Positions 1 through 60,507 of a stretch of DNA of 64,000 nt are shown here, piece after piece; the stretch's first letter is position 1; each line of letters starts with the position of its first letter. Source of the stretch: Minisyncoccota bacterium (lineage in GTDB: Bacteria; Patescibacteriota; Minisyncoccia; Phycocordibacterales; UBA5272); contig JBAZJW010000002.1 in the NCBI GenBank assembly GCA_041651055.1, forward strand, positions 26,980 to 90,979. Reading direction: 5' to 3'. The notes under the pieces were generated by a model, which saw nothing but the letters and a program-made list of their open reading frames with translations, was not told the DNA's origin and ran no database searches. The translations under genes and the position numbers were made by a program.

Positions 1-596
1 GAAGAAGGATTGAGGCTGGTCCAATTATACTAAAAGATCTTGAACTTATAAGAGAATATGGTATTACACTTCAACAGTATGATGGTGTGTTGTTATCGCA
101 AAACAATGTTTGTGCGATTTGCAGAAAACCAGAAACTGCTGTTGATTCTAGAACAGGAAAAGTGCGCTATTTATCTGTTGATCACAATCATAAATTCGGT
201 AAAAAAGATGCTGCTGGTCATAGAGGTTTGTTGTGCAAGAATTGTAATTTGGCTATAGGTAGGATTGATGACCTAGAAATAATTGACAGTGCTATTGTTT
301 ATTTGAGCGGTTACACAAAAGAACATAACTGTGTGTCTATGAAACAATTTAGAGATGTGCACACAAAACTTCAGAACAATAAATGTAAAATTTGTGGTAA
401 ACCAGAAAAATCAATCAATCCGTACACAAAGACGGCACACATTTTGTCGTTGGACCATGATCATAGTATGGAAAAGAAGGATCCCAGGAGCTGGCGTGGT
501 TTGATATGTATGAGATGTAATACTGTGATTGGTTTCTTTTATAATAAAATACTGTTGTTGTCAGTAAAAAGATACTTAGAAAAATATGGATTGTGA
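1..596 (+). CDS. Recombination endonuclease VII (T4 gp49-like), 5'-partial at the window edge; two tandem EndoVII/HNH-like repeats in one chain
   Basis: Frame is open to nt 3. Repeat 1: CAICRK...LSVDHNHKFGKKDAAGHRGLLCKNCNLAIG. Repeat 2: CKICGKP...LSLDHDHSMEKKDPRSWRGLICMRCNTVIG. Resembles T4 endo VII ...HLDHDH...GKVRGLLCNLCN. Confidence 0.75.
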   Translation, partial: RRIEAGPIILKDLELIREYGITLQQYDGVLLSQNNVCAICRKPETAVDSRTGKVRYLSVDHNHKFGKKDAAGHRGLLCKNCNLAIGRIDDLEIIDSAIVYLSGYTKEHNCVSMKQFRDVHTKLQNNKCKICGKPEKSINPYTKTAHILSLDHDHSMEKKDPRSWRGLICMRCNTVIGFFYNKILLLSVKRYLEKYGL

Positions 597-1002
597 AATG
601 GCTCGAATAATCATATGTGATGATAGTATTTCATTTTGTGAGATGATGAAAGATATGCTATTAAAATGTTCTAATAAGAGGTATGAATCTTCTTTTGAGT
701 TAAAAGTGGATGGAGCACACAGTGCTGTTGAGTTTTTTGATATGATAAAATCACGTAATTATGAATTGGTGATATTGGATATAATATTGGCTCGTGATGA
801 TGGCTGGGCAATTTTGTCGGAGATTCGCAAGGACAAATCTAAGTCTGATCTTCCAGTGATAGTGGTGTCTGCTGTAGATAGCGTAGATTTGAAGTATGAG
901 TCGATAAGAAAAGGTGCGGTAGATGGTTTTGCTAAGCCTCTTCGGGGGGAAGAGCTAAAGCGTTTTGTGGATGTGGTATTCAACTTGGTCGTGGACAGGT
1001 AA
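586..1002 (+). CDS. Stand-alone CheY-like receiver (REC) domain protein with no output domain
   Basis: ARIIICDD acidic pair, ELVILDIIL phospho-acceptor Asp, VIVVSAV, FAKP lysine: the canonical REC signature. Start may be ATG 598. Confidence 0.7.
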   Translation: MDCEMARIIICDDSISFCEMMKDMLLKCSNKRYESSFELKVDGAHSAVEFFDMIKSRNYELVILDIILARDDGWAILSEIRKDKSKSDLPVIVVSAVDSVDLKYESIRKGAVDGFAKPLRGEELKRFVDVVFNLVVDR

Positions 1003-1020: not shown

Positions 1021-1507
1021 CATGGAAACTCCACAAATAGTTACGTTGGCGGTTGCGGTATTTGCTGCTTTCATGACTCTTATTATAGGTGTGTGGTTGA
1101 AGAAACTGTTTTCATCGTTTGTTGACAGCATAAAGGAAAAGGTTGACAAGTCTGTAGATAAAGAATCGTTTGAAGCATTTAAGAAAGAAATACAAAATAA
1201 CGTGCAGGCAGTTTTAGGGAAAGTGGGTGGTATAGAGCGAGAATGTAAAGATATAGACCAAGTAAACCGAGGCCAAGAAAAAGACATCACCAGACTTCAA
1301 GAGTGCACGCGTGATCTAGACTCAATAAGAAAACAAATGCTTGTTATTGAATCGTTGAAGTCTGAATTTTTGGAGAAATTTACGCGTCGCGGGGACTTTA
1401 TACGTGAAATGCAGTTGTTGAATTCGCAGTTGGAAATCATACAGAAAAAGATTGATAAGCTAGATGAGCGCATAAACAGACGTGCGTTCAAAGTGGTAGA
1501 GGAGTGA
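1021..1507 (+). CDS. Membrane-anchored coiled-coil protein
   Basis: N-terminal transmembrane helix IVTLAVAVFAAFMTLIIGVWL followed by heptad-rich sequence; RBS aaagggga upstream of the ATG. Confidence 0.5.
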
Positions 1508-1741: not shown

Positions 1742-2302
1742 ATGATCACCAAATTCAATCAAAGTATAGGTGATGTGGTGTTGGTGGAGTCTTCGAAGTA
1801 CGAAGACGATCGTGGGTTTTTGTCAGAAGTATTTAACGAAATGGAGTATGAGAAGGCAATTGGTAAGTCTATTAGTATCAAACAGTTGAATACATCGTGT
1901 TCAAAGAAGGGTGTTATTAGAGGAATACACTATGCTGTTAATAACCCGCAGGGGAAATTGGTGCAGGTGTTGAGTGGTGCTGTGTACGATGTAGCCGTTG
2001 ATTTGAGAGCAAATTCTCCAACCTTCAGCAAATGGTGTGCTGCATTTTTGATGAATGACACTGATGCGTGTAGATTGCTGTGGATTCCACCTGGGTTTGG
2101 GCACGCTTTTATGGCCTTGGCAGATAATACCATCATTCAGTATTTGATGACTGAAGTGTATGAAAAAGATAATGACAGAACGATTTTATACAATGATCCT
2201 ACTATTAATATTAGGTGGCCAACATTTTTTGTTGATAAAGTGGTTGTGTCGGAAAAGGACAAAAACGGTAAAAGGCTGACAGAAGCAGAAGTGTATGGTT
2301 GA
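1742..2302 (+). CDS. rmlC: dTDP-4-dehydrorhamnose 3,5-epimerase (RmlC cupin)
   Basis: IRGIHYA, VQVLSGAVYDVAVDLR, WIPPGFGHAF: the RmlC signature blocks. Confidence 0.85.
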   Translation: MITKFNQSIGDVVLVESSKYEDDRGFLSEVFNEMEYEKAIGKSISIKQLNTSCSKKGVIRGIHYAVNNPQGKLVQVLSGAVYDVAVDLRANSPTFSKWCAAFLMNDTDACRLLWIPPGFGHAFMALADNTIIQYLMTEVYEKDNDRTILYNDPTINIRWPTFFVDKVVVSEKDKNGKRLTEAEVYG

Positions 2303-2783: not shown

Positions 2784-2784
2784 T

Positions 2785-2858
2785 ACCCCCGTTGTCTAAT
2801 AGGAGAAGACACCTGGCCTCTACCCAGGTAACTGCGGGTTCGAGTCCTGCCGGGGGTG
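2785..2858 (+). tRNA. tRNA-Arg (anticodon TCT)
   Basis: Manual cloverleaf. Acceptor ACCCCCG/CGGGGGT, D arm GTCT-AATAGGAGA-AGAC, anticodon arm CCTGG-CCTCTAC-CCAGG, T arm GCGGG-TTCGAGT-CCTGC. Position 33 is C, which is unusual. Confidence 0.75.
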
Positions 2859-2862
2859 TTGT

Positions 2863-2937
2863 GCACCGTTAGCTCAACTAGGTTAGAGCGCGTGGCTGTT
2901 AACCACGAGGTTGAACGTTCAATTCGTTCACGGTGCG
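2863..2937 (+). tRNA. tRNA-Asn (anticodon GTT)
   Basis: Manual cloverleaf. Acceptor GCACCGT/ACGGTGC, D arm GCTC...GAGC, anticodon arm CGTGG-CTGTTAA-CCACG, T arm GAACG-TTCAATT-CGTTC. Confidence 0.85.
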
Positions 2938-2987
2938 TGTGGTTGCAATGAAACTGGCGGGTGTACTTCTGAAAGGCGGTACAATAC

Positions 2988-3314
2988 GTGACCGATGTAC
3001 CAGTAGTAAACATAAAAGTGGATTTGCTTACATTGTTGTGTGCTGTTCAAGATTGTTGTCTGGGTGAGTACTCCAGGACAGGCGGTTTTTTGAAAATAAA
3101 CAAGGATAATGAACTGCTCGATGGATACCACAGGCTGGTGGAGTGTATGGTGCTGGGTGTAAAAGAATTGAGGTGTGAAGTAGGAAACGGTGATACTAAT
3201 CCTGCAAGGGAGGAATTTATTGCAAAGCCGAACGACAGGTTTTGTGGTTTGGAAAGATATTATGATGCAAGTGTGCTTGAAGATGTGTGTTGTGCGCTAG
3301 GAGGTGGCGTGTGA
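2988..3314 (+). CDS. Hypothetical protein, possibly a ParB/Srx-like fold (DGYHRLVECMVLG)
   Basis: ORF; weak motif resemblance only. Confidence 0.35.
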   Translation: MTDVPVVNIKVDLLTLLCAVQDCCLGEYSRTGGFLKINKDNELLDGYHRLVECMVLGVKELRCEVGNGDTNPAREEFIAKPNDRFCGLERYYDASVLEDVCCALGGGV

Positions 3315-3649
3315 TTAATGTTGCGAATGTAAGATACACCAAATACAGCAAAAATGATCCGACTGTGATATATGTAGGGCGAAAAATGAAAGATTTTGGT
3401 GGCTCTGTGTTGGGCAATCCATATAAAATAAACAAACAGGACAATGTTTTAGATACTGGAAGAGATAAAGTAATTCGTAAGTACAAAATGTGGTTGTTAG
3501 AGAGAATGAAAGACAAAGAGTCCGATCAGTTCAAGGAAATGATCAGACTAAAGAGACTGTCTGAGGCAGGGAATTTGACGTTGCTGTGTTGGTGTTGGCC
3601 TTTGCATTGTCATGGTGATGTAATAAAGGAGATACTTGAGAGTATGTAA
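3311..3649 (+). CDS. DUF4326-like protein
   Basis: VIYVGRK...GSVLGNPYKI ... LLCWCWPLHCHGDV matches the DUF4326 pattern (GNPF...C.C.P..CH). Confidence 0.5.
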   Translation: MINVANVRYTKYSKNDPTVIYVGRKMKDFGGSVLGNPYKINKQDNVLDTGRDKVIRKYKMWLLERMKDKESDQFKEMIRLKRLSEAGNLTLLCWCWPLHCHGDVIKEILESM

Positions 3650-4198: not shown

Positions 4199-4467
4199 TG
4201 GATGCAATCCTTGCAAAGTGCCCATTTTGTGGTCAGCAACAGACTTTTACCACAGACAAACTTTGTCAAATAGGGATTACTGCACGTGGCAGCAAGTCCA
4301 AAATGTACAGGGTCGGTGATGCTGTAAGACCTGGAGGCATGTGCAGATCAGATGCCAAACTTGTACTGGACAGTGAGTGTCCAGGGTGTCACGAAAAGCC
4401 TGTGTTGGCCTTGAAGGGGTACAAGATTGGTGGCATGTTACGTAGCGCGGACGAGAATCTAACATGA
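4195..4467 (+). CDS. Zinc-ribbon protein
   Basis: CPFCGQQ ... CPGCHEK cysteine pairs. Confidence 0.45.
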   Translation: MMDAILAKCPFCGQQQTFTTDKLCQIGITARGSKSKMYRVGDAVRPGGMCRSDAKLVLDSECPGCHEKPVLALKGYKIGGMLRSADENLT

Positions 4468-4964
4468 CATTGGTAGCCAAAGCCATAGAGTTTGCCAAGA
4501 TTGCCCACGGCGATCAAAAGTATGGTGATAAGCCATATTTTCAACATCTGCTTGAAGTGGGTATGGCAGTAACGCTGTCCAAGATGCACTATAAACATGT
4601 GGGTGATGATGAGGTAATATGTGCCGCGTTTTTGCATGATGTGCTTGAGGATACTGAAGTTACGCGCAAACAGTTGATTGAGGAGTTTGGAGTCAAAGTT
4701 GCAGATTTAGTTTTTGCAGTCACTGATGAGCCTGGCATCAGCCGGAAGGAAAAGAAGGCAAAAACTTTATTGAAAATTGCGGGGGCTGGTGATGCCGCCA
4801 CGCTAATCAAGCTGTGTGACAGGATCTGTAACATGCGTAACAGCGCCGGTACTAGTTTTATGGATATGTATAAGAAAGAGGCAGCAGAATTTAAAAGGGT
4901 GTTATATAGGAAAGGGCTGTTCGAGGAATTGTGGTCAGAATTCGATGCGCTGGTGAAATCATGA
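4464..4964 (+). CDS. HD-domain small alarmone hydrolase (SpoT/Mesh1-type (p)ppGpp hydrolase-like)
   Basis: HGDQKYGDKPYFQHLLEV ... AAFLHDVLEDTEVTRKQLIEEFGVKVADLV matches the RelA/SpoT HD hydrolase signature. Confidence 0.75.
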   Translation: MTLVAKAIEFAKIAHGDQKYGDKPYFQHLLEVGMAVTLSKMHYKHVGDDEVICAAFLHDVLEDTEVTRKQLIEEFGVKVADLVFAVTDEPGISRKEKKAKTLLKIAGAGDAATLIKLCDRICNMRNSAGTSFMDMYKKEAAEFKRVLYRKGLFEELWSEFDALVKS

Positions 4965-5074
4965 AGACGAAATATGCGCGATCATTTAGTGGGGCGCGGG
5001 TGGGCTTGTCTCGGCACGTCCAGGCACACCTCGGTACGGCTTGGGTAGCTAAATATCAAGAGGAGAACATTTGA
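4961..5074 (+). CDS. Candidate 37-aa micro-ORF (MKTKYARSFSGARVGLSRHVQAHLGTAWVAKYQEENI)
   Basis: ATGA overlap with the HD gene stop and TGATG overlap with the NADAR start suggest translational coupling; GC-rich; unverified. Confidence 0.25.
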   Translation: MKTKYARSFSGARVGLSRHVQAHLGTAWVAKYQEENI

Positions 5075-5781
5075 TGAAAGTGATTGATAGCTTCCGTGGT
5101 GAACATGCTTTTCTGTCTAATTTTTATGCATGTAACATATCTGTCGGTCTCAATTGTTTTAGCTCTTCGGAACAGATGTATCAGTATTATAAGACTACGG
5201 ACGCGAAATTCAGAAAATTGATTCTGTCTGATGGTGGCAACCCATCTGTAGCCAAGAGGCTTGGTTGTAAGGCTCCACTACATGAAGATTTTGAGAAGAA
5301 CAAGCTGAGTATTATGTATTTGGTGGTATTTGAGAAATTTATTCAAAATCTAGATTTGCGTGATAGACTTTTACAAACCGAGAACGCCAAATTGGTAGAG
5401 GGCAACAACTGGAAAGATGTGTTTTGGGGCGTGTGTGGAGGTAAGGGTGAGAATCACTTAGGAAAGATCCTGATGCAGGTGCGCCACCATTTTCAGTGTT
5501 GCCGTAATTCCAAAATTTACATGGAAACAGTAGATTTTGTTGGTGGTACGTTGGACGATGTTTATGAGAAAAAAAGTGAAAATGAGAGAAGGCAGCAAGA
5601 CGAGAAGGTCGTTAGGAATATTGCTAAATGCAAGAAGTGTGGTGACGTAATAGAATCTAAATATCGACATGATTTCGTTCAGTGTAAGTGTGGTGCTATT
5701 TTTGTTGATGGTGGACACGACTATTATAGGCGCGGTGGTAACTTAGAAGATTTTGATGAGATTGACCCCTCCGTTGATTAA
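5074..5781 (+). CDS. NADAR (YbiA/DUF1768) ADP-ribose-processing hydrolase with C-terminal zinc ribbon
   Basis: FRGEHAFLSNFY and VFWGVCGGKGENHLGKILMQVR NADAR blocks; C-terminal CKKCGDV...CKCG. Confidence 0.8.
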   Translation: MKVIDSFRGEHAFLSNFYACNISVGLNCFSSSEQMYQYYKTTDAKFRKLILSDGGNPSVAKRLGCKAPLHEDFEKNKLSIMYLVVFEKFIQNLDLRDRLLQTENAKLVEGNNWKDVFWGVCGGKGENHLGKILMQVRHHFQCCRNSKIYMETVDFVGGTLDDVYEKKSENERRQQDEKVVRNIAKCKKCGDVIESKYRHDFVQCKCGAIFVDGGHDYYRRGGNLEDFDEIDPSVD

Positions 5782-6778: not shown

Positions 6779-7173
6779 AGCGCACCTTTTTCGTGTTGGT
6801 GCTGTTGGTATCTGCGCCATCTTATGCACAAGACGACATTCGAGTACAACAAATAGACGGAAAGAGTTTTGTGTGTTTCACAGAAGATGATGCCAAAGTG
6901 TTGTTGCAATTACGGTTAGATTATCCTAAAATGAAAGAGAAAATACTTATCCTTGATGAACGAATAGAGTTAAAGAATAAAATGGTGATGTCACTTGAGG
7001 ATGCCAATGAGTACCTAAACCAACAAAATGGGTTGCTTTTGAAAACCAACGCTGGATTGGAAGAAAAATTAGATTCTATGGATTCGTGGTATCGGTCTCC
7101 CATATTATGGAGCGTCGTGGGCGTTGTTATAGGTGTTGGCATCACTGTGGGGGTAATGTATGCAGTTAAATAA
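6775..7173 (+). CDS. Secreted or membrane protein (signal peptide plus C-terminal transmembrane helix)
   Basis: N-terminus FFVLVLLVSAPSYA; C-terminus ILWSVVGVVIGVGITVGVMY. Confidence 0.5.
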   Translation: MKRTFFVLVLLVSAPSYAQDDIRVQQIDGKSFVCFTEDDAKVLLQLRLDYPKMKEKILILDERIELKNKMVMSLEDANEYLNQQNGLLLKTNAGLEEKLDSMDSWYRSPILWSVVGVVIGVGITVGVMYAVK

Positions 7174-7450
7174 GTACATCAAGTTGGCAGTTGGTGAATT
7201 AGAAGATAGAGTATCTGAGGATGTGGCCAGAGAGGTTGGTGAAGCGATAGGGATTGATTGGGACGAAGTTGAATTTACACCCAAAGACCTGGCTGCTGGT
7301 ATGATGGTAGAATTGGAGCATGGATCCAAAGATGCTAATACGGACGTGACTGGTGATGATTTGGAGATGACTGCTAAGATAGCTTGGGCTCATCTAAAAG
7401 AATCTCCTAAATACTATAAATTATTGGACAAGATGGAAAAAGATTTTTGA
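7160..7450 (+). CDS. Hypothetical acidic protein
   Basis: ORF. Confidence 0.45.
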   Translation: MQLNKYIKLAVGELEDRVSEDVAREVGEAIGIDWDEVEFTPKDLAAGMMVELEHGSKDANTDVTGDDLEMTAKIAWAHLKESPKYYKLLDKMEKDF

Positions 7451-8586: not shown

Positions 8587-8994
8587 ATGTCTGCTAAATA
8601 TGAACATACAGAACAACTAGTGCAAGCACAAGCAGAGAAACTGAAGGAGTTTGATTCTACCATTAAATCTCTAAAAGATACTATTAGGGACAGGGACGAT
8701 GAAATATCTACAACATATAGAATTAATAAGGCTTTAGAAACAGAAAATGATAATCTTAGGGACCGGAATGAGGAATTAGAAAGCAAGATGCGCGAATTAA
8801 AAGGTGAGTTGAAGAGACAAGAAGTTGGGTCGTCGATTGATGAATATTCAATCATAGGCAGAGAGTTGGTAGAATTTTTGCTGAGCAGAAACAACGGACA
8901 GTGGTGGGTTAAGTCTCCAGTAGAAGTGGTTAGGTCCTTGATGGTGGAGTGGGACTCAGTTCGCGAAAACAATGATCCGTGTATGTTCACGTGA
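8587..8994 (+). CDS. Coiled-coil protein
   Basis: RBS aaggagg; heptad-rich. Confidence 0.5.
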   Translation: MSAKYEHTEQLVQAQAEKLKEFDSTIKSLKDTIRDRDDEISTTYRINKALETENDNLRDRNEELESKMRELKGELKRQEVGSSIDEYSIIGRELVEFLLSRNNGQWWVKSPVEVVRSLMVEWDSVRENNDPCMFT

Positions 8995-9002
8995 GGTGTA
9001 AA

Positions 9003-9470
9003 ATGGGTGTACATGTGCTTGAAACGCTGTTGAGAAAAAAGCCCAATTCTGTACAAAATGGGAATTCTGTACAAAATAAAAGACATGCACCGGCAGAGGC
9101 CATAGTCATACGCGACCGATCTAAGGAATTAAAAGTGGAACAAGCAAAAGTAGAGTCTCAAGAACAAGAGAAAAAAGAGCAACAATCGCCCTCTTTAGAT
9201 GTGGTTAGAAAGTCTATGGAAGAAATCAAAATGCTCACCTTTTCCTATGAGTCGCATGGTGACAAGAAAATTCGTAAGGTTGAACCTTACAAGCTTATGA
9301 GGAACAACAAAGGTGAGATCATTTTGTACGCATACTGTGTGGAATCGAATGGAATACGCGCTTTCAAAATAGACAAGATCGTGGAGTGTGCTGCTGTTGA
9401 AGAAACGTTTATGCCTAGGTGGCCGGTTGAAAATCAATTAGATCCAAAACCAGATCCAGACAAGAAATAA
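9003..9470 (+). CDS. WYL-domain protein
   Basis: KVEPYKLMRNNKGEIILYAYCVESNGIRAFKIDKIVE fits the WYL consensus (R.v.Py.l...g.wYl.ayc...R.Frld+I). Confidence 0.55.
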   Translation: MGVHVLETLLRKKPNSVQNGNSVQNKRHAPAEAIVIRDRSKELKVEQAKVESQEQEKKEQQSPSLDVVRKSMEEIKMLTFSYESHGDKKIRKVEPYKLMRNNKGEIILYAYCVESNGIRAFKIDKIVECAAVEETFMPRWPVENQLDPKPDPDKK

Positions 9471-18687: not shown

Positions 18688-18785
18688 AGCTGTTGCTGTT
18701 GGCATTACTGCTGTTTGTGGTTCGTTTGCTAATCATTGACAATCATTAATCTACATCATAAATAAATAGAGTATAATGCAAGGTG

Positions 18786-20699
18786 ATGGGTGCTGCACTG
18801 AATATGAAAGATGGCCTGTTCCGTGACATAGATAATATCATAAATGGGGAAAGTATAAGTACTTTTACCAGTGTGGTGAATACTGGTTTAGTGACCCTCG
18901 AACGCCCACCAAATGAAGTAGTTTTTATAGAATCACCTAAATTTCTAAATGGCCCAAAGGAGCTGTGGCCAGAACAGTATAGGTTTACAAGAGACTTCTA
19001 CGAGCTTAGTTGTCCTGTCTGCAATGACTTGGACAAAATGTACCGTGGTGGTGAAATTAAAAGAGAAGACGATGTACTGTTTGAGTATAATGTGTGTCCA
19101 AAATGTGGTGCTAGAAAAGAAGATGTTGTAGAAGCACTCAATTTTTATTATAGCATTAACGGTGTGGTGGGGATGCGTTCCGGTAAGTCTACTGGCATGG
19201 GGTGTTTTTTGGCTGCATTTACTGCCGATATTTTGTGTGTACCTGATCTGCACAAAAAGCTGGGTATAGTTGAATCGGATGCTTTGGATGGCACGTTTGT
19301 GGCCGCTGCACAAAAGCAAGCTTCAGATACTATATGGAGCAAATTTAAGGGCATGTATGATAATAGTCCTTGGTTCCAGTACTACAAACATGCTTTGCTT
19401 GATATTGAGGTGAACGATAAGCGGTTTAGGCGCGGTGAGTTGTACTGGGAGACAGACAATCTCATACACTGGCAAGATAAACACATACGGCTTACTGCTG
19501 TGCCCACCAACTCAGCTACGCAGGCTGGACGCACGCGCATTTTTGCGGTGATAGACGAGCTGGCTAGGTTAGACTCAGGAGAAAGCAAGCGGTCTGCATC
19601 AGAAGTGTACCGCGTGCTTGAAAACTCATTGTACACTGTGCGTCAAGCTGTGTCTGAGTTGCGTGCAAAAGGCAATATAGAGATACCAGATGCTGTGATG
19701 GCTTCTATATCTTCCCCGTTGTTTCAAACCGACAAGTCTATGAGTCTGTTGGATGATGCTAAGATCGACAAGCGCATATATGCTTTCAAGAAGGCTACGT
19801 GGGAATTCAATCCACACTCCAAAAAAGAAGATTTTGCTTCATTATACGCACGCGATCCGATAGGCACAGAGCGCGATTTTGGTGCCAACCCGCCTGGAGC
19901 CGAAAACCCGTTTATTAAGGACCCAAACATAATCAAGGCATGCACGGATTACAAGCGCACCTCGTGTTTTACTCTTAGAGAAAATTACTTTGATCTCAAA
20001 GCAGGAACAGAAGGTAATGAAGCTACATTCCATTTTGTGAAGATGGATATTTTGAATATGTCTTATATGAATTTAGCTGAGTACGTGATACACTGTGACC
20101 CAGGCGAAACCGGAGACAGCTTTTCACTTACACTAGCACACAAACAAGACGGTGTTTGTTGTATAGACGGTTACATAGAAATACGCCCGGTTCCGGAGGG
20201 AAGTCAATTTAGTAAAGTACCTCGTTCCGTACACTTTCCCTCAGTGGTGAATTTGATATTGGCTTTGCACAAAAAGATAAAAATCAGATTGGTGACATAC
20301 GACAAATGGAATAGTACTGAACAAATACACCGCCTCATAGATGCAGGTATTATAGCCATAGGTAAAAACCTGACCAGGGATGATCATCTAAATTTCCTGG
20401 AAGGTTTGAATAGTGGTTGGGTTAGTATGCCTGCACCGGAAGTAGAGGTAGCCGATCCTTCAAATATGAGAAATGTGCCGTGTGCCCAGGCACTGTATGA
20501 ATTGAGTAAATTAAATGATAATGGAGCAAAAGTAGATCACCCACCGTATGGTCACAACGACATTATACAGGGCGGGGTTGGGGTATACCGATCTTTGATG
20601 CATCCAGACCTAATACCAATTGAAAAGAAAAAGACCAAACAAACGTGGCAAAACCGACAGAAAGTGCCGCCAGTTACTTTAACCAGACTTAGACGTTAG
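18786..20699 (+). CDS. terL: Terminase large subunit with an N-terminal zinc-ribbon insertion
   Basis: Walker A VGMRSGKSTG; C-terminal nuclease-type region; CPVCNDL...CPKCG ribbon; size about 637 aa. Confidence 0.85.
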   Translation: MGAALNMKDGLFRDIDNIINGESISTFTSVVNTGLVTLERPPNEVVFIESPKFLNGPKELWPEQYRFTRDFYELSCPVCNDLDKMYRGGEIKREDDVLFEYNVCPKCGARKEDVVEALNFYYSINGVVGMRSGKSTGMGCFLAAFTADILCVPDLHKKLGIVESDALDGTFVAAAQKQASDTIWSKFKGMYDNSPWFQYYKHALLDIEVNDKRFRRGELYWETDNLIHWQDKHIRLTAVPTNSATQAGRTRIFAVIDELARLDSGESKRSASEVYRVLENSLYTVRQAVSELRAKGNIEIPDAVMASISSPLFQTDKSMSLLDDAKIDKRIYAFKKATWEFNPHSKKEDFASLYARDPIGTERDFGANPPGAENPFIKDPNIIKACTDYKRTSCFTLRENYFDLKAGTEGNEATFHFVKMDILNMSYMNLAEYVIHCDPGETGDSFSLTLAHKQDGVCCIDGYIEIRPVPEGSQFSKVPRSVHFPSVVNLILALHKKIKIRLVTYDKWNSTEQIHRLIDAGIIAIGKNLTRDDHLNFLEGLNSGWVSMPAPEVEVADPSNMRNVPCAQALYELSKLNDNGAKVDHPPYGHNDIIQGGVGVYRSLMHPDLIPIEKKKTKQTWQNRQKVPPVTLTRLRR

Positions 20700-36873: not shown

Positions 36874-38751
36874 GTGGCAGACAAGGATAAGAAAAAGCCC
36901 ACCAACAGCAGCGCTATCATAGTTAAGGCCAGTGATTTTAGGGACAACCCTGACGAAGGCAAGATTGAAGGCCAAAAGGATATGGTTTATGGTCGATACC
37001 GAAGCATAGCCAGTGTCAATCGCCGTGGATCTTATACTGGCGCTCCCACTTCTACCTCGCAGCAATCCACTGCGATGGTGCCTATTTACTACGATTACCG
37101 GTTTTCTACACCAGACAAGTACTACTTTCCCAAAGACCGGTTCAATGCCAACTCTACGTGGCGTGATATCTATCGACGCGACGCCACCATCGGTATCGCC
37201 ACTGACATGTATTCGGAGTTGCCGTGGTCCGACTTTGATATAGAAGCTGTAGACGACCCTAAGATACAGCAGTGTTATGAAGATATGTTTACCGATTTGG
37301 CTTTGGCCCCACAAATGCCTTTGTTTTCAAAGGACTTTCTAATACACGGAGAGTTCGTAGGGCACTCCCTGTTCAATGAAACTAAGGGGTACTGGGACCG
37401 GATCATCTCCCACAACCCAGATTATGTGAAAGTCATGGGTGTGGGTTTAGCTTCAGCACAGCCATTATGCTGGTTGCGTCCTACTCCTGACTTTGTGCGT
37501 CTTATGAACACTCCAGATCCTCGGGTACGCAAGTACTTGAATACTATCCCTGGTGAAGTGCTGCGCTCGTTTAAGATGGGCAAGGAAGTGTACCTTGAGC
37601 CCATGAATACTACGTACATGCCTCGCAAAAACACTTCACAAGAGGTGCGCGGTATATCTGTTTATACTCGTTTGTTCCGCATTAACATGTACGAAGATTT
37701 CGTGATGAATGCTTCACTGTCCATAGCCCAACGCAATGCGGCTCCATTGCGCTTGTTCAAGATGGGTGATGTCTCCAGACCTGATGGTTGGATGCCGGGT
37801 GCAGAAGACATACAAGCATTTACCAATTTGTTGGCTACATCGGAGACAGATCCGTTTGCGGCGCTAATCACTCACCCGTACATCACCGTAGACTATGTGG
37901 GTGTAAGCGATAAAGTACTGCTGATTTCCCGAGAGTGGGAGTTTATTGAGCGTGTGAAGCTGCTAGCATTTGGTGTGTCAAAAGCATTTCTGGTCGGGGA
38001 GACATCTTTTGCATCGAGCGTAGCAGGTTTGCAGACTTTGCTTGAGCGCCTGGCTAACTTTAGGCTGATGTTTGAAGTCAATCTGATGCGTGACAAACTG
38101 GCTAAGCCAGTAGCCGAGATGAACGATTTTTATGAGCATTCCCAGGCGGAGCTGGACCATAGAGTGCGGGTCAAGAACAAAGCTGAGCGCAGGTTGGTGC
38201 TACCCACTTTCAAGTGGAAGAAAAGCCTTGAACCGACTCAAGATCAATCCTTGATGAACACTTGGCGCGACTACAAAGAGCGTGGTTTGATCTCTGATAA
38301 GACTTATTTGGCTGGTGGTGGTGTAGATATAGAGATTGAAAGACGCAATCTCATTGAAGAGATAGAGTACAAAGAGAAGATGATCGAGGAAGGCAAGATT
38401 CAGCCTCCTGGCATGGAAGGTGAAGAGGGCATGGGTGGTGGTCTTGGCGGTGAAGAGCCGGGGTTGCCTCCGCCTCCGGGCGCACACAGGATGCGTGGCG
38501 TTCATCCAAACTTTCCACGTCGATTGCCGTCTATGAGGCACTGGGCGAAAAAGTTGATGGATGACTACACCCCAGGAGATGAGTTAGATTCAAGTAGGAT
38601 GAGTGTAGACCAAGCCATGGATAGATTTAGCAAGTTGAGTCCAAGGGCTAGGAAACAGTTGCTGCACGAGATCAAAAACAAGGTGCCGTCACAAGAGCCA
38701 TACATGCTGAATGGTGCCGTGCGGACGGCAAGGAAGAAGCCACATGAATAA
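36874..38751 (+). CDS. Large virion-type protein, possibly the portal (size and position only)
   Basis: GTG start with RBS; 625 aa; Gly-rich C-terminal segment; no diagnostic motif recognised. Confidence 0.45.
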   Translation: MADKDKKKPTNSSAIIVKASDFRDNPDEGKIEGQKDMVYGRYRSIASVNRRGSYTGAPTSTSQQSTAMVPIYYDYRFSTPDKYYFPKDRFNANSTWRDIYRRDATIGIATDMYSELPWSDFDIEAVDDPKIQQCYEDMFTDLALAPQMPLFSKDFLIHGEFVGHSLFNETKGYWDRIISHNPDYVKVMGVGLASAQPLCWLRPTPDFVRLMNTPDPRVRKYLNTIPGEVLRSFKMGKEVYLEPMNTTYMPRKNTSQEVRGISVYTRLFRINMYEDFVMNASLSIAQRNAAPLRLFKMGDVSRPDGWMPGAEDIQAFTNLLATSETDPFAALITHPYITVDYVGVSDKVLLISREWEFIERVKLLAFGVSKAFLVGETSFASSVAGLQTLLERLANFRLMFEVNLMRDKLAKPVAEMNDFYEHSQAELDHRVRVKNKAERRLVLPTFKWKKSLEPTQDQSLMNTWRDYKERGLISDKTYLAGGGVDIEIERRNLIEEIEYKEKMIEEGKIQPPGMEGEEGMGGGLGGEEPGLPPPPGAHRMRGVHPNFPRRLPSMRHWAKKLMDDYTPGDELDSSRMSVDQAMDRFSKLSPRARKQLLHEIKNKVPSQEPYMLNGAVRTARKKPHE

Positions 38752-55555: not shown

Positions 55556-56959
55556 ATGGCAGGTTTGAGAACGAAGACTTTGGAAAAGGTGAACGGTTTT
55601 TTGAAGAAGGCTCAAAAGGAAGAAGAGCCAAAAGACGAAACTGAGGAAGCTCCTGAGCCTGAAGGTGGCGAAGAGGTCGAGGAAGAGTCTGAAGGTGAAG
55701 AAGCGGGTGACGAAGAGGTGCCCGCTGAAGGCGAAGAGGCTACCGAGGAAGAAGAGGCTGAGGAGCCAGAAGAGAAGACCGTTGAAGAGAAGGTCGATGA
55801 TTTAACCGATAAGGTTGACAGTTTGGCTGATGCAGTCAACCAGTTGCTTGGACTTGAAGAGAAAGAGCATGAGTTAGAGGAAACGGAACAGGGTGTTGAA
55901 GACGATTTTTCAGAGTACGTGGAAATGGTTGATGATGAAAACGCTGAAGAGCTGTCCGAGGAAGAGTTTGGAATGTCCCCGGATCAGTTTGTAACCTCTT
56001 CTGATAAGGGGAAGGAGCGAGGAATGACCCTAAGACAGAAGCGGCTAGCCCGCATGAAGATCTACAAGAAGTCCACTACTCTTGCCGATGAATTTGCTCT
56101 GGACAAGAGTTTGAAGAATAAGAAGGACCTGACTGGTACGCCAGTGGTTAATTACACTGACAAGTTGGTGAAGGTCCCTCCGACTCCGGACATGCTGAAA
56201 GTAGCAGAGCTTTCTCTGGAGTCTGATGATGCCAACACCAAGTGGACCGTGATGGATAAGCGCGGTCGTGCTCTGTACACCATTGCTCGTGGCACCATTA
56301 ACCCGAAAGAGTTTAGTGACGCTGAGTTTGCGCGTGGCGTAATTCGCGACATGCACAAGATGGGTGTGAAAGAGGCACTGAAAAAGTACGGCGCTAAGCC
56401 CTGGGAAGATGAAGAAGACAAGAAGGACGAAGATAAGAAAGATGAGAAGGAAGCTAAGGCCAGTCTGAAGCAGATCGCTTCTGATTATCACCGCAAGTTT
56501 GCCCGTGCCATGCGGCTGGTGATTGCAGCCATGAACAAGAACATGATTAGGCCCATTCCGCTGAAGGGTGCCTTGATTGAGATCATGGCTAAGATGGGTG
56601 TTGAGCAGCCAATTACCATCATTGAAGCTGCATTCAAGTCCGCTGCTGATAAACACTTTGAAGTGGCGCTGGCTAATGCCGAGAAGCTTATGGACATGTC
56701 TGATGAGGCGTTTGTGGAATACGAGGCGCTGGTGCATGGTGGTGATGTGGCTCCAGTAGCCAGCCCTGAGCAAGAGGCTGAGATCGTAGCTACTGCCAAT
56801 CTGTCAGAAAAGGCGCTAGACCTGCGTAGGCAGGCTGCAAAAGGGTCTGTTGATGTTTCTTCTGCTTCAGAGGAAGACGTTGACAGCTTTGACCAAAGAC
56901 TGGCAGCGGTCGTGCCCAAGCCGCTGACTTGGAAACTGGCTCTTAGAGCCAGGAAGTAA
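55556..56959 (+). CDS. Acidic coiled-coil scaffold-like protein
   Basis: N-terminal poly-Glu/Asp region; helical; sits between the protease-like and capsid-like genes. Confidence 0.55.
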   Translation: MAGLRTKTLEKVNGFLKKAQKEEEPKDETEEAPEPEGGEEVEEESEGEEAGDEEVPAEGEEATEEEEAEEPEEKTVEEKVDDLTDKVDSLADAVNQLLGLEEKEHELEETEQGVEDDFSEYVEMVDDENAEELSEEEFGMSPDQFVTSSDKGKERGMTLRQKRLARMKIYKKSTTLADEFALDKSLKNKKDLTGTPVVNYTDKLVKVPPTPDMLKVAELSLESDDANTKWTVMDKRGRALYTIARGTINPKEFSDAEFARGVIRDMHKMGVKEALKKYGAKPWEDEEDKKDEDKKDEKEAKASLKQIASDYHRKFARAMRLVIAAMNKNMIRPIPLKGALIEIMAKMGVEQPITIIEAAFKSAADKHFEVALANAEKLMDMSDEAFVEYEALVHGGDVAPVASPEQEAEIVATANLSEKALDLRRQAAKGSVDVSSASEEDVDSFDQRLAAVVPKPLTWKLALRARK

Positions 56960-56994
56960 CGGGCAACTAGGTAATCCTAGAAAGGGGTGTCGAG

Positions 56995-57690
56995 ATGATC
57001 GACCGCGAAAGAATGAAACAGTACATGCCGTCCCGGGTGTTCTACGATGTAGACCCCAACGCCGAGATCTATGCCGGGATGGTCGCATTCCTGGCTGTGG
57101 ATGGCAATGGTGTAACCGTTGCTACCACTGCGCCGTCAGGTACCCGGCCCATTGGTACCTTCGAAAAGGACCAGGGACTGGCCTATGAGCGTTCATCTGT
57201 AGAGCAGCACACCTTCGATGCCAACAACCAGATCCTTGTCAAGCACCCGTTTGTAACTGCTGGTAAGGCGGAAGGCAAGTTGCAGAGTCTGGCTGGTGTT
57301 GTGTACACCGAGAATGTGGACTACACTGTCAACCTGACAAACGGCGTCATTACCCGTGTGGTTGGTGGTGCCATTGCTGCTGGCGAAACTGTAGACGTGT
57401 GGTATCGGTACACAGTCAAGGCCGGTGACACGATGTGGAATGGCGGAACCAACCTGGACCGCGTTCCGGACGACACTCTTGGCAGTGGTCAGATCACTGT
57501 CATCGAGGATTGGGCTCACATTTGGACCGACCAGTTCGTGGTAACTGATCAGTTCGCCGTTGGTGACGAGCTTCGGCCTGCGGCTGACAGTCGTTGGACC
57601 AATCAGGTAAACGGCCATCCGGTGTGCGGTATGTGCATCCACGTGCCTTCACCCGATAACCCCCTGTTGGGTGTGCGTCAGCAGATCTAA
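56995..57690 (+). CDS. Beta-rich protein, candidate capsid decoration protein
   Basis: ORF with high GC; Gly/Thr/Val-rich. Confidence 0.45.
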   Translation: MIDRERMKQYMPSRVFYDVDPNAEIYAGMVAFLAVDGNGVTVATTAPSGTRPIGTFEKDQGLAYERSSVEQHTFDANNQILVKHPFVTAGKAEGKLQSLAGVVYTENVDYTVNLTNGVITRVVGGAIAAGETVDVWYRYTVKAGDTMWNGGTNLDRVPDDTLGSGQITVIEDWAHIWTDQFVVTDQFAVGDELRPAADSRWTNQVNGHPVCGMCIHVPSPDNPLLGVRQQI

Positions 57691-57730
57691 GGGGTAGGGG
57701 ACTAAGGTAATAGAGAAAGGGAGAGATGTC

Positions 57731-58864
57731 ATGAAATTCAACCCGTACTTGGACAAGATGCAGGGCAAGGTCACCATTGACCGAAAAACTGGTGAACCCT
57801 TCAACCCGCTGAACTTCTCTGCAAAGAAGGATGACAGCGGCAAGCGCAAGGTGTCTGCTAGTGAGCGCCTGTTCAACAAGGACAACGAGCTGAACGCTTC
57901 CAGCAAGAAAGACGCGCTGCAGAAGATCGCTGCCCTGTTCGAGATGGTGCAGGACGGCGAGTTCGAAGTCGCCACTCAGCCTGAGGGCTTCAAGGTTGAT
58001 GCTGCCGAGCAGGATGCCCTGCTCAAGCAGGCTTATGCCGACCCGTCTGGTGAGGGGTTTGCTAAGCTTGGTCAGCAGATGTTGACCGTGGTGCGCGAGG
58101 TCATCGACTACGAAGGCGTAACCCGCAAGCTGTGGATGGATCGGCCGGTGAAGGCTGGCGAGACCATTCGGTACGACAAAGACGTGCATGTGGTGGCCTA
58201 CGTCATCGGTGAAGATGGCGAGACTCCGCAGAGCGTGGTTGGTGGTAAGTACTTCTTCCCGCCCGAGTTCGAAGTGTCCGCTAACGTGTCCATCGAGCTG
58301 AAGGACCAGTACCGGTCGCAGTACAACATCCTTGAGCGTGCACAGGACAAGGCTCGCCAGGCCATTGAGTACCGCGAAGACCTGGCTGGTATTCGCCTGC
58401 TTCGTCGTGCATCCAACGTGGTTAACACCACCGTTGCGTTTGCTTCGATGAACCTGGGCGCGTTCGAGTCCCTGCGCTACCAGATCGAGCAGCACCGCCT
58501 CATGACTGCCGCTTTCCTGATTCACCGTCAGGAAGTGTCCGACATCGTGAACGTGCTGACCGCACAGGTTGACCCAGTGACTCAGCGTGAGATCATCATG
58601 GCTGGGTACATCGGTCACATCCTGAATACCGCAGTCATCACCACTGCTGGTACTAACAACATGTACGAGATCCTGCAGCCTGGTGAAGTGTTTGCAGTGA
58701 CTCTGCCTGAGTACCTGGGCGGCATCTCGCAACGCAGTGATCTCATGAGCGAGCCTTACACCGAGGCAGTGAACGGCAAGCCCCGGCGCGGGTTCTACTG
58801 GTGGGAGATGCTCTGCCTGGCACTGATCAACGCCAAGGGCGTTGCCTACGGTCAGAAGATCTAA
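57731..58864 (+). CDS. Candidate major capsid protein
   Basis: 377 aa, high GC; position after the scaffold; followed by a strong terminator. Confidence 0.5.
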   Translation: MKFNPYLDKMQGKVTIDRKTGEPFNPLNFSAKKDDSGKRKVSASERLFNKDNELNASSKKDALQKIAALFEMVQDGEFEVATQPEGFKVDAAEQDALLKQAYADPSGEGFAKLGQQMLTVVREVIDYEGVTRKLWMDRPVKAGETIRYDKDVHVVAYVIGEDGETPQSVVGGKYFFPPEFEVSANVSIELKDQYRSQYNILERAQDKARQAIEYREDLAGIRLLRRASNVVNTTVAFASMNLGAFESLRYQIEQHRLMTAAFLIHRQEVSDIVNVLTAQVDPVTQREIIMAGYIGHILNTAVITTAGTNNMYEILQPGEVFAVTLPEYLGGISQRSDLMSEPYTEAVNGKPRRGFYWWEMLCLALINAKGVAYGQKI

Positions 58865-58897
58865 CCACGAAACGAAAGGGTTGAAAGGAGAGAAATC

Positions 58898-59356
58898 ATG
58901 AATCTGAAACTAGCACGGCGTTACCTGGATTTTGCCGCCACTGAGATGGATCAGAAGGGTCACAAGGACCTGGCCGATCGCATCGACAAGCACGTCGAGC
59001 GGCTGGCTTCTGCCGATCAGCGGATGGTGGACCTGATCGTGCGCGATCTCAAGAAAATCGCTCGCGAGTCCAATCGGCGTGATCGTGGTGTGGATGAAGA
59101 CGCCAGTGAGCGCACTGATGAGCGGCCTAGCCGACTGTCCGCTCTGCGGCGTCGGCTGGCACTCCGCAAACGTCTAGCTGCTCGTCGTGAGCCGCTGTCT
59201 GAGCGCCGGTTGGCTTCCCTTCGCAGTCGCCGCAAGGCGCGGATGGAAGAGTATGGCGACGACGGCGACGAGGATCGCAGCACCGCGAGTGATCGGCTGC
59301 GCCGGTCACGGTTGGCTCGCCGAATCCGCGCTCGCCGGGAACGTGACCTAGAATAA
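58898..59356 (+). CDS. Arg-rich highly basic protein with acidic patch
   Basis: RBS aaaggagag; RRRLALRKRLAARREP...RRSRLARRIRARRERD. Confidence 0.5.
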   Translation: MNLKLARRYLDFAATEMDQKGHKDLADRIDKHVERLASADQRMVDLIVRDLKKIARESNRRDRGVDEDASERTDERPSRLSALRRRLALRKRLAARREPLSERRLASLRSRRKARMEEYGDDGDEDRSTASDRLRRSRLARRIRARRERDLE

Positions 59357-59376
59357 GCAGGTGTGGGATGGGATTG

Positions 59377-59420
59377 CCCCACGGAGTGACTTCGTGTAAT
59401 AGCACTCCGTGGGGCATTTT
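59377..59420 (+). terminator. Rho-independent terminator
   Basis: 12-bp stem CCCCACGGAGTG/CACTCCGTGGGG followed by CATTTTCAT. Confidence 0.65.
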
Positions 59421-59438
59421 CATAAAAGGTGTTGAAAT

Positions 59439-59675
59439 ATGCACATAACAAGTAGTTCGGCAGAGTTTATGACACTGCTTGAAGATTTAGCACGACAGGT
59501 GAGAGATGCGCTTAGTCAGGCGCGTTTTGCTCAACGAGAAATGGAAGATGACATAATGGCGGCCGAAGACAACGGCGATACTGTAGCAGTAGATGAGTTG
59601 CGATTAGTACACGATGATTTCACTACATTTATTAAAGGTTTGAGGAAAGCAGTAGAAATGTATGACTCCAAGTGA
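59439..59675 (+). CDS. Hypothetical protein
   Basis: RBS aaaggtg. Confidence 0.4.
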   Translation: MHITSSSAEFMTLLEDLARQVRDALSQARFAQREMEDDIMAAEDNGDTVAVDELRLVHDDFTTFIKGLRKAVEMYDSK

Positions 59676-60507
59676 GACAGCCACCAAAGTTAATAAAGTC
59701 ATCCAATTACACAAGGATGACTTCATTTACGAAAAGGTGTATTTTAATCCTATGTTCACTGCTGATTTGTACCGATTGGTACCAGAGTTAGAAGAGGAAG
59801 GCGTGATATCCCGTTTATATGAATCTGAAAATGAAGATGGTGTTACGTATAAAGGTGCCTTGAAGTATGGTACCAGTTTGCTGCATCTGGGTAAGATTAG
59901 GCTGGATGGGGAAGACATCATAGTCGATGAGAAGTTGACTCCTATAAAAGCATTGGTAAAATGGATAGAATCGGTGTTGGAGGAGACTGAGGTAAAAGAT
60001 ATGATAGTAAAAGCGATAAATATTGTGTCTGTTGATAGACAAGAAAAATACTTAGATAGAGCTAAGACAATGATGCAGCAAATGAATGATATCATCAATT
60101 CTGGGAAATTGGGTGTAAAAGAATACGCAAAGCTAGAATCATTGAGTGCTAGGTTGTGGCACTCATTTGAAGACCTAAGACAGAACCTAGAATTGGTGGG
60201 TGGTCAAACAGTAATTCTATCCGTGAAAGTTAAAAGATCTGACTTATACGAAGTGGACGAATATCTTTCCAAAAATTATAGAAAATACCTTGTTTCAGCA
60301 GACACCACCTCAGTAAATCAAACATTTATATTTATGGTACCACACACTGAGGCAGACAAACTCATAGATTCGGGGTACTTTGAAGACATGGTTGAAGAAA
60401 TTTCCGAATTGCATTCTGTAGAAGCTATAGATTATGATTTTACAGATGAACCTAGATCTGAAAAGAACACCTTAAGAACAAACTGGGTAAAGGATTATGA
60501 TATTTAG
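59662..60507 (+). CDS. Hypothetical protein
   Basis: ORF of 281 aa. Confidence 0.5.
   Translation: MTPSETATKVNKVIQLHKDDFIYEKVYFNPMFTADLYRLVPELEEEGVISRLYESENEDGVTYKGALKYGTSLLHLGKIRLDGEDIIVDEKLTPIKALVKWIESVLEETEVKDMIVKAINIVSVDRQEKYLDRAKTMMQQMNDIINSGKLGVKEYAKLESLSARLWHSFEDLRQNLELVGGQTVILSVKVKRSDLYEVDEYLSKNYRKYLVSADTTSVNQTFIFMVPHTEADKLIDSGYFEDMVEEISELHSVEAIDYDFTDEPRSEKNTLRTNWVKDYDI

Follow-up and report, generated by a model that had tools for sequence, protein, structure and literature searches.

Background

Bacterial signalling relies universally on receiver domains as its phospho-switch, and phage-encoded receivers are already known as a kind. According to virome surveys, the auxiliary genes of phages include two-component genes (PMC9636769), and in the literature we found no stand-alone phage receiver with a worked-out function. 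The question of what such a protein does is raised by a 64,000-nucleotide stretch of DNA (contig JBAZJW010000002.1, positions 26,980 to 90,979 of the forward strand; hereafter the window), which carries near its beginning a gene for a receiver with neither an output domain nor a recognized kinase nearby. We call this gene REC, and the two small genes that follow it X and Y.

An initial annotation had read REC as a phage-encoded orphan receiver and had proposed that it could act as a phosphate sink or decoy for a host two-component system. In this work we focused on the protein, its relatives and its gene neighbourhood. We describe a delimited receiver family on phage and metagenome contigs and an invariant REC-X-Y cassette, a gene context undescribed before, and we rule out readings of these proteins as a cRec enzyme, a releasin or spanins. 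X and Y are a concrete and testable candidate partner pair, and we tentatively favour a role of REC as a switch acting through them.

Results

REC is a complete receiver without an output domain

The protein matches the Pfam Response_reg model (PF00072) at 58.6 bits, significant against a gathering cut-off of 30.2, with an E value of 8e-16 and coverage of profile positions 1-108 of 111. Its open reading frame (ORF) spans positions 586-1002 on the + strand. The initial annotation took the whole frame, beginning with the ATG at 586, as the gene; the receiver ORF stands, and the start is almost certainly the in-frame ATG at 598, four codons further on. This start is favoured because the aligned position is a methionine in 78 of 83 homologues, nearly all of them reading M-A-R, because the public gene calls give 134 amino acids, and because ATG 598 sits one base past the stop codon of the upstream gene (594-596). 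The REC protein is 100% identical to a public protein record, and its residues are numbered here from ATG 598.

In an alignment with Escherichia coli CheY and Bacillus subtilis Spo0F, D8, D9, D61, S91 and K113 of REC fall on CheY D12, D13, D57, T87 and K109. All the conserved receiver positions listed in the initial annotation thus lie on canonical sites. The AlphaFold model, built from an input alignment of 95 sequences, has a mean predicted local distance difference test score (pLDDT) of 92.1 and a predicted template modelling score (pTM) of 0.88. Its elements follow the order b1-a1-b2-a2-b3-a3-b4-a4-b5-a5 of the (beta-alpha)5 doubly wound fold, with the receiver occupying residues 2-132. 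The absence of an effector or output domain, also claimed at the outset, was borne out: Pfam finds a single domain and the modelled chain stops two residues past alpha5.

A Foldseek search of the PDB with this model gave 558 matches at E <= 0.001. The top ones were all receivers, namely Francisella 1452 (6ont), PmrA, VicR, DrrD and RR468 (E 6e-10 to 1e-8, template modelling (TM) score 0.75-0.85), and phmmer against the PDB agreed (E 3.5e-9 to 1e-7). Among models of the viral structure library BFVD, proteins named "Cyclic-phosphate processing Receiver domain" matched at E values of 8e-4, 0.057 and 0.079 with TM scores of 0.61, 0.44 and 0.39, whereas classical receivers matched at 1e-8 to 1e-10 with TM scores of 0.7-0.85. 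REC lies below every NCBIfam equivalog cut-off (CheY, EpsW, Spo0A, PhoB, PmrA and others), its best scores being 44-49 bits against cut-offs of 189-800. Judged by alignment and model together, REC is a genuine, classical and catalytically complete receiver, predicted to be competent for phosphorylation.

REC belongs to a distinct receiver family

An exhaustive HMMER search with REC returned 28,299 receivers at E <= 0.001, among which a few stand-alone proteins of about 131-134 amino acids stood out at 39-42% identity. A profile built from these stand-alone homologues recovered about 85 clusters (90% identity) at 130-213 bits; a clear gap follows, and no generic receiver exceeds 91 bits. Because of this drop in score, REC is assigned by sequence to a distinct and well-delimited family.

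Residue conservation was counted over 83 family members, 127-156 amino acids long. The phospho-acceptor D61, whose conservation in orthologs had been singled out as critical at the outset, is invariant, as is K113 (83/83 each). D9 is kept in 81 members, and position 8 is Asp in 65 and Glu in 16. Position 91 is Ser in 78 and Thr in 5, with A92 in 79 and P114 in 80 members. This pattern indicates an active site under selection.

The rate-tuning positions D+2 and T+2 are hydrophobic. D+2 is Leu in 62 and Met in 12 members (Ile in the window protein), T+2 is Ile in 48 and Val in 34, and K+2 is Leu in 44 and Ile in 33; T+1 is Ala and K+1 is Pro. Hydrophilic residues at D+2 and T+2 are predicted to speed dephosphorylation, and Ile, Leu or Val at K+2 favours active conformations and phosphorylation (PMC8510515). 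With hydrophobic D+2 and T+2 and Leu or Ile at K+2, members of the family seem adapted to being phosphorylated easily and to staying phosphorylated for a fairly long time, as would befit a switch more than a catalytic drain of phosphate.

Other features set the family apart. Helix alpha1 is lengthened (residues 11-28) and a conserved Y29-x-S31-x-W33-x-L35 precedes beta2; W70, R77, Y100 (in alpha4), F123, F128 and L130 are also conserved. Position K-3 is Trp in 67 of the 83 relatives and Gly in the window protein and its subclade. The same subclade carries a KPLRGEEL..F segment, of which the main clade is without the three residues GEE. Alpha1 is the most variable element (mean column entropy 2.4 bits), and the core strands (0.5-0.9 bits) and alpha3 are the least variable.

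Family members were found only on metagenomic contigs of up to 199 kb, three of which are IMG/VR viral genomes; those long enough to judge are phage-like. No member was detected by BLAST in 50,697 deposited phage records, where tblastn gave only generic receivers of at most 38% identity, mostly in unannotated records. Among the matches listed from 185,579 species-representative bacterial and archaeal genomes there was likewise no member, only generic receivers of at most 40% identity, and those listed from a larger metagenome sample comprised generic receivers and one true member (L097). The closest cellular receivers among the matches listed are about 36-40% identical to REC over part of its length. 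No close cellular relative stands among them, so REC was not recently copied from a host regulator.

REC is always followed by X and Y

The cassette was compared in the loci with enough flanking sequence (the window, L001, L003, L005, L007, L008, L010, L012, L014 and L097, plus L179 and L181). REC, X and Y follow one another contiguously in 12 of 12, counting two loci reached from the X side, in one of which (L181) the ORF before X is cut by the contig end and is assumed to be REC. The three genes are separated by 0-19 nucleotides or overlap by a few bases. Their mean pairwise identities over 11 loci are 48% (REC), 36% (X) and 34% (Y). The genes upstream of REC vary among loci (EndoVII, a 71-amino-acid gene, VWA, HNH, a 137-amino-acid gene), and X and Y are missing beside the receiver of L004, which at 78 bits on the family profile is not a member. 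Since X and Y follow REC in every locus despite differing upstream genes, their constancy suggests that they are dedicated partners of REC.

Less constant genes come after Y. A cupin, either RmlC-like or of a shorter type, follows it in 7 of the 10 loci compared, and homologues of gene V, 64-85 amino acids long and without a Pfam match, lie downstream in 9 of 10. In several loci a 71-74-amino-acid Zn_ribbon_8-like gene stands between the cupin and V. Sugar genes also occur in the relatives, including those for a UDP-glucose dehydrogenase, an RmlD-like epimerase and a fucosyltransferase. Near the REC block, relatives of this phage (L005/L006, L010/L011, L003) share genes for a bpMoxR AAA+ ATPase paired with a VWA protein, for DUF6744 and for an NAD-dependent DNA ligase, in an order relative to REC that differs between lineages.

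X is a predicted membrane protein and Y a small soluble one

Homologues of X are 111-162 amino acids long; the copies of the window and L001 are 39% identical (E 2e-32). All eight aligned homologues have an acidic N-terminal tail, one transmembrane helix and Lys or Arg just after it, and X is therefore predicted to have its N terminus outside and its C terminus, with the long helical part, in the cytoplasm. The C-terminal part holds a conserved motif, EKFxRRGDFIRE..NSQLE.I..KID.LDE. The AlphaFold model of X is all-helical (residues 3-43, 47-122 and 125-160; pLDDT 80.6, pTM 0.33) and had no PDB match in the fold search; X is probably an extended, oligomerising protein, for which so low a pTM is expected.

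Homologues of Y are 62-69 amino acids long and share the motif NG[TS]G..EL...GE[IL]..[ED][ED]A. Y gave no usable PHROG match (a single weak one, in 1 of 8 members; Pfam was not searched), its PDB matches were at chance level, and its homologues show neither a signal peptide nor a conserved Cys.

Several identities were tried and rejected. With no conserved His in X or in Y, neither qualifies as a His-phosphotransfer (Hpt) protein, and lacking a conserved Cys, Y does not qualify as a lipoprotein either. The releasin of phage Mu, gp25, is like X a small phage protein with an N-terminal transmembrane helix, N-out/C-in topology (predicted for X) and a helical cytoplasmic part (PMC9239132). A few X homologues match its DUF2730 family weakly, most do not, and the hhalign probability of X against Mu gp25 is 8.4%. 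The resemblance is confined to architecture and predicted topology.

X and Y were also considered as an Rz-type inner-membrane spanin (i-spanin) and outer-membrane spanin (o-spanin). The predicted topology of X is opposite to that of an i-spanin (N-in/C-out), and Y is without the signal peptide and conserved Cys of an o-spanin. The "Rz-like spanin" PHROG matches of X are weak (4 of 8 members, best E 8.5e-6), no + strand ORF of at least 40 amino acids is embedded in X, and no lipoprotein gene is embedded in or adjacent to it. A lysis-cassette context was rejected as well: no endolysin or holin was recognized beside the cassette in the window, and among the related loci a weak Amidase_3 match four genes away in L007 was the sole sign. 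PADLOC gave no match to a defence or anti-defence family.

No kinase accompanies REC

The kinase search started from 123 multidomain kinase/regulator proteins of the HMMER search, an H-box being present in 98 and a G1 box in 99. Against the six-frame ORFs of the window the REC ORF was the sole match, and in about 125 kb of non-redundant flanks of the related loci only REC ORFs were matched. The 9.5 kb upstream of the window carry no HisKA, HATPase or Hpt Pfam mark. Over the roughly 200 kb covered in all, no ORF for a histidine kinase, HATPase or Hpt was found; a phage-encoded kinase is thus rejected for this DNA, and REC is an orphan there, as the initial annotation had it.

The window is phage DNA

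The phage origin assumed at the outset was confirmed: since a large terminase, a portal and a major head protein are encoded (Table 1), the window is phage DNA. Every long ORF lies on one strand, and GC skew is strong. The source contig measures 183,779 bp (ENA ERZ27247363:k141_3129229); its NCBI label as a "Candidatus Paceibacterota" metagenome-assembled genome is probably a binning artefact, in which a phage contig was binned into a candidate phyla radiation genome. Of the deposited genomes, that of the uncultured "Virus Rctr197k", 197 kb in size, comes closest (31% identity in the large terminase, 39% in the major capsid protein), and jumbo myoviruses such as PaBG and Lu11 are more distant (PMC7412058). 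Megablast found no nucleotide-level match to the window in the 50,697 deposited phage records.

Table 1. Positions of genes and REC active-site residues in the window
Feature	Position	Strand	Evidence or remark
REC gene, 134-aa single-domain response-regulator receiver	598..1002	+	Pfam, AlphaFold, Foldseek, homologue alignment
REC acidic pair D8-D9 (CDD)	619-624	+	alignment with CheY, Spo0F
REC phospho-acceptor D61 in LVILDI	778-780	+	alignment with CheY, Spo0F
REC S91 (S91-A92) in VVSAV	868-870	+	alignment with CheY, Spo0F
REC K113-P114 in FAKP	934-939	+	alignment with CheY, Spo0F
Gene X, 161 aa, N-terminal transmembrane helix and long helices (coiled coil)	1022..1507	+	invariable downstream neighbour of REC
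Gene Y, 65 aa, no hydrophobic segment	1514..1711	+	always next after X
RmlC-like cupin (dTDP-4-dehydrorhamnose 3,5-epimerase family)	1742..2302	+	Pfam dTDP_sugar_isom E 2.6e-55, 187 bits; PHROG 8784
Gene V, 64 aa	2295..2489	+	homologues downstream of REC-X-Y in 9/10 loci
Helix-turn-helix (HTH) and two Endonuclease VII matches, 3' part of 360-aa gene	1-596 (continues upstream; L182 8493-9575)		directly before REC
tRNA-Arg(tct)	2784-2859		just downstream of REC block
tRNA-Asn(gtt)	2862-2938		adjoins tRNA-Arg(tct)
DUF4326 gene	3287-3649		
HD_4 gene (RelA/SpoT-type hydrolase domain)	4464-4964		
NADAR fused to DUF7695	5071-5781		
DUF5661 gene	7160-7450		
WYL-domain protein gene	8979-9470		
Large terminase	18783-20699		window
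Portal	36874-38751		window
Major head protein	57731-58864		window
Transposase-like ORF, 412 aa	61024-62262		PHROG 506, E 7e-115; just past capsid genes

Going upstream from REC, the order is the HTH and Endonuclease VII gene, a 69-amino-acid gene, DUF7768, a 104-amino-acid gene and ThyX; a CYTH-domain gene accompanies ThyX and DUF7768 on the source contig upstream of the window (L182). The HTH and Endonuclease VII gene looks like a homing-endonuclease-type insertion specific to the window genome, because the related phages L001 and L012 carry a gene of about 70 amino acids directly before REC instead. Downstream come X, Y, the RmlC-like epimerase, V and two tRNAs, followed by DUF4326, an HTH protein, HD_4, NADAR with DUF7695, DUF5661 and WYL. 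The DUF4326, HD_4, NADAR+DUF7695, DUF5661 and WYL genes form a run of counter-defence-style genes. The ppGpp hydrolase and NADAR genes, which the initial annotation placed next to REC, are real (HD_4 and NADAR matches), at a distance from REC of 3.5-4 kb and no fewer than 7 genes.

Shine-Dalgarno-like motifs are enriched in the window, standing before 34-49% of predicted starts against a background of 6-14%. Promoter and terminator scans of the window gave counts at or below shuffle expectation. GC content is 53% at positions 56001-60000 and 40-46% elsewhere in the window.

Discussion

A switch acting through X and Y

The reading that we favour is that REC is a phosphorylation-competent single-domain response regulator, kept by this phage lineage for its own use as a switch acting through X and/or Y; we hold it tentatively, giving it a little less than an even chance. 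During infection D61 would receive its phosphoryl group from a histidine kinase or Hpt protein of the host, or else from a small molecule, acetyl phosphate for example, and phosphorylated REC would thereby report the physiological or envelope state of the host. On the inner side of the membrane it might then bind X and/or Y differently and so switch a phage process; candidates are the timing of a membrane or envelope event, or control of the sugar-nucleotide enzyme whose gene often comes after the cassette. The RmlC-like gene and the sugar genes of the relatives point loosely to the cell surface. In its fuller form, REC-X-Y would be a phage-confined, kinase-less module that reads the envelope or metabolic state of the host and, through X and Y, determines when or how far an event at the membrane or cell surface under phage control takes place, a possibility that we regard as doubtful.

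Several points weigh against this reading. The phosphorylation of REC, its phosphodonor and its contact with X or Y are inferred, and since no homologue of X or Y is informative, what REC would control is conjectural. The link between the three genes rests on gene order among related phages, part of which could be inherited synteny. A kinase could be encoded in the part of this phage's genome outside the searched DNA, roughly 110 kb, and with Gly at K-3 the window protein may switch by a mechanism different from that of most of its family.

Alternative explanations

The sink proposed at the outset supposes that free REC competes with a host regulator for phosphoryl groups and so blunts an envelope-stress or defence response. 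Sink-type CheY proteins are an established precedent, and an intact, conserved active site with neither an output domain nor a phage kinase nearby is what such a protein would show. Helix alpha1 is a main kinase-specificity surface in known regulators, and its variability in the family would fit the tracking of different host kinases; the same variability is equally expected if no kinase constrains REC. A pure sink leaves the invariable X and Y unexplained, and with no cellular receiver more than about 40% identical among the matches listed there is no sign that a particular host regulator is mimicked. The hydrophobic D+2 and T+2 stand against it as well, since it is hydrophilic residues there that are predicted to enhance dephosphorylation (PMC8510515), and a slowly hydrolysing receiver drains phosphoryl groups only stoichiometrically. 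The HD_4 and NADAR genes, cited at the outset as host-manipulation neighbours, are distant from REC and absent from the called genes in the fetched flanks (1-10 kb per side) of the related loci. In our judgement the sink is not the most likely reading, and we consider it unlikely.

We give little credence to a dominant-negative action, in which REC, as a descendant of the OmpR/PhoB receivers stripped of its DNA-binding domain, would heterodimerise through alpha4-beta5-alpha5 with a host regulator of that type and poison its DNA binding. The best matches of REC are indeed receivers of that family (6ont, PmrA, VicR/YycF and DrrD; CopR, PmrA and RprY in NCBIfam), and the KPLRGEEL..F segment of the window's subclade resembles KPF...EL..R, the corresponding OmpR/PhoB segment. 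Identity to these receivers is only 20-37%, however, the main clade is without the GEE segment, and the linkage to X and Y is again left unexplained.

A phosphorylation-independent adaptor or scaffold, whose receiver fold would bind X, Y or a host protein and whose acidic pocket would hold a metal or ligand, appears improbable. It would accord with the lack of a kinase in the window and related loci, and Y29, S31 and W33 of the lengthened alpha1-beta2 region, together with Y100 in alpha4 and W70, could form a binding surface. Pseudo-receivers, however, characteristically lose catalytic residues (PMC12632262); REC keeps all five, and D61 and K113 are invariant over 83 sequences averaging about 48% identity.

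Scarcely credible, finally, is a cRec-type enzyme, a divergent receiver-fold phosphoesterase that opens the cyclic phosphates of 2'-3' RNA ends and of 1''-2'' cyclic ADP-ribose (ADPr) and would here cooperate with the NADAR, DUF4326 and WYL genes: although DUF4326, HD_4, NADAR and WYL genes lie within 2.3-8.5 kb of REC in the window, and a YAcAr gene (L001) and a WYL gene (L012) each within 3 kb in relatives, it is rejected because the classical receiver score, the retained Ser/Thr and Lys of phospho-signalling receivers, the structural matches and the gene neighbourhood are all contrary, the conserved neighbours being X, Y, the cupin and V instead of NAD/ADPr or RNA-ligase/RNA-repair genes, with no Nudix fusion, with NADAR 4 kb from REC in the window genome only among the loci compared, and with no BLAST match to REC in phages reported to have cRec.

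What is at stake differs between these readings. If REC is a switch working through X and Y, the phage would own, in REC-X-Y, a side arm of bacterial two-component signalling; should a phage decision depend through this module on host kinase activity or on acetyl phosphate, the module would clearly exemplify how a virus can use the phosphorylation chemistry of its host to read that host's signalling. A REC that is only a sink would be a modest addition to the host-takeover genes.

Comparison with known systems

The cRec domain was proposed for jumbo phages by Iyer et al.; it is reported in up to 18% of them, with ties to genes for NAD/ADPr processing and RNA repair (PMC7824862, PMC9503650). 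REC shares with it a receiver-type fold in large phages, the lack of a histidine kinase and genomes rich in NAD/ADPr-related genes (PMC7824862, PMC9503650). REC differs in being classical by profile score, by its Ser/Thr and Lys and by structure, and in having no operonic tie to NAD/ADPr or RNA-repair genes.

Closer in kind are the stand-alone CheY-like genes of Alteromonas phages V22 (gp30), A5 (gp11) and P24, which have been classed as class II auxiliary genes of unassigned function (PMC7289586, PMC10579305). V22 gp30 is the second-best viral structural match to REC (E 3.4e-8, TMq 0.72), yet it does not belong to the REC family: it is 20% identical, scores 44 bits on the family profile against more than 180 for members, and has 149 amino acids with a C-terminal extension that REC lacks. 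Beside it, gp29 combines an acidic N-terminal tail, one transmembrane helix and a coiled coil in the same architecture as X. It was rejected as a homologue of X (hhalign probability 17%), the likeness being one of architecture alone, and V22 has no Y homologue. In V22 gp30 stands between small membrane proteins, in a cluster (L096, MN877442, 2960-5039) that looks of lysis type, with a papain-like amidase (gp28), gp29 with its N-out transmembrane helix and coiled coil, a spanin-like protein with a transmembrane helix, basic N-terminal tail and coiled coil (gp31), and a protein with two hydrophobic segments (gp32); the papers that call this module host-recognition genes do not discuss such a cluster.

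Among bacterial proteins, OmpR/PhoB receivers are the best sequence and structure matches, and REC differs from them in being without the winged-helix Trans_reg_C domain. It is built like the single-domain regulators CheY, Spo0F, DivK, CpdR, MrrA and EpsW, which consist of a receiver of about 120-135 amino acids with the full DD/D/(S/T)/K site. As REC is a receiver only, its output must therefore go through protein-protein contacts. It departs from these regulators in being phage-encoded with no kinase seen, in its lengthened alpha1 and Y-x-S-x-W insertion and in its neighbours X and Y, and it is no CheY or EpsW equivalog (39 bits against the NCBIfam EpsW cut-off of 200; 41 against 189 for CheY, scored with a 60% homologue). 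The single-domain regulator EpsW has as its target an enzyme of a sugar pathway that is bound to the membrane (PMC12802240). A similar action of REC on a sugar-pathway enzyme would be speculation by analogy; the membrane sugar-enzyme target of EpsW nevertheless resembles the setting of REC, close to a predicted membrane protein and an RmlC-like epimerase.

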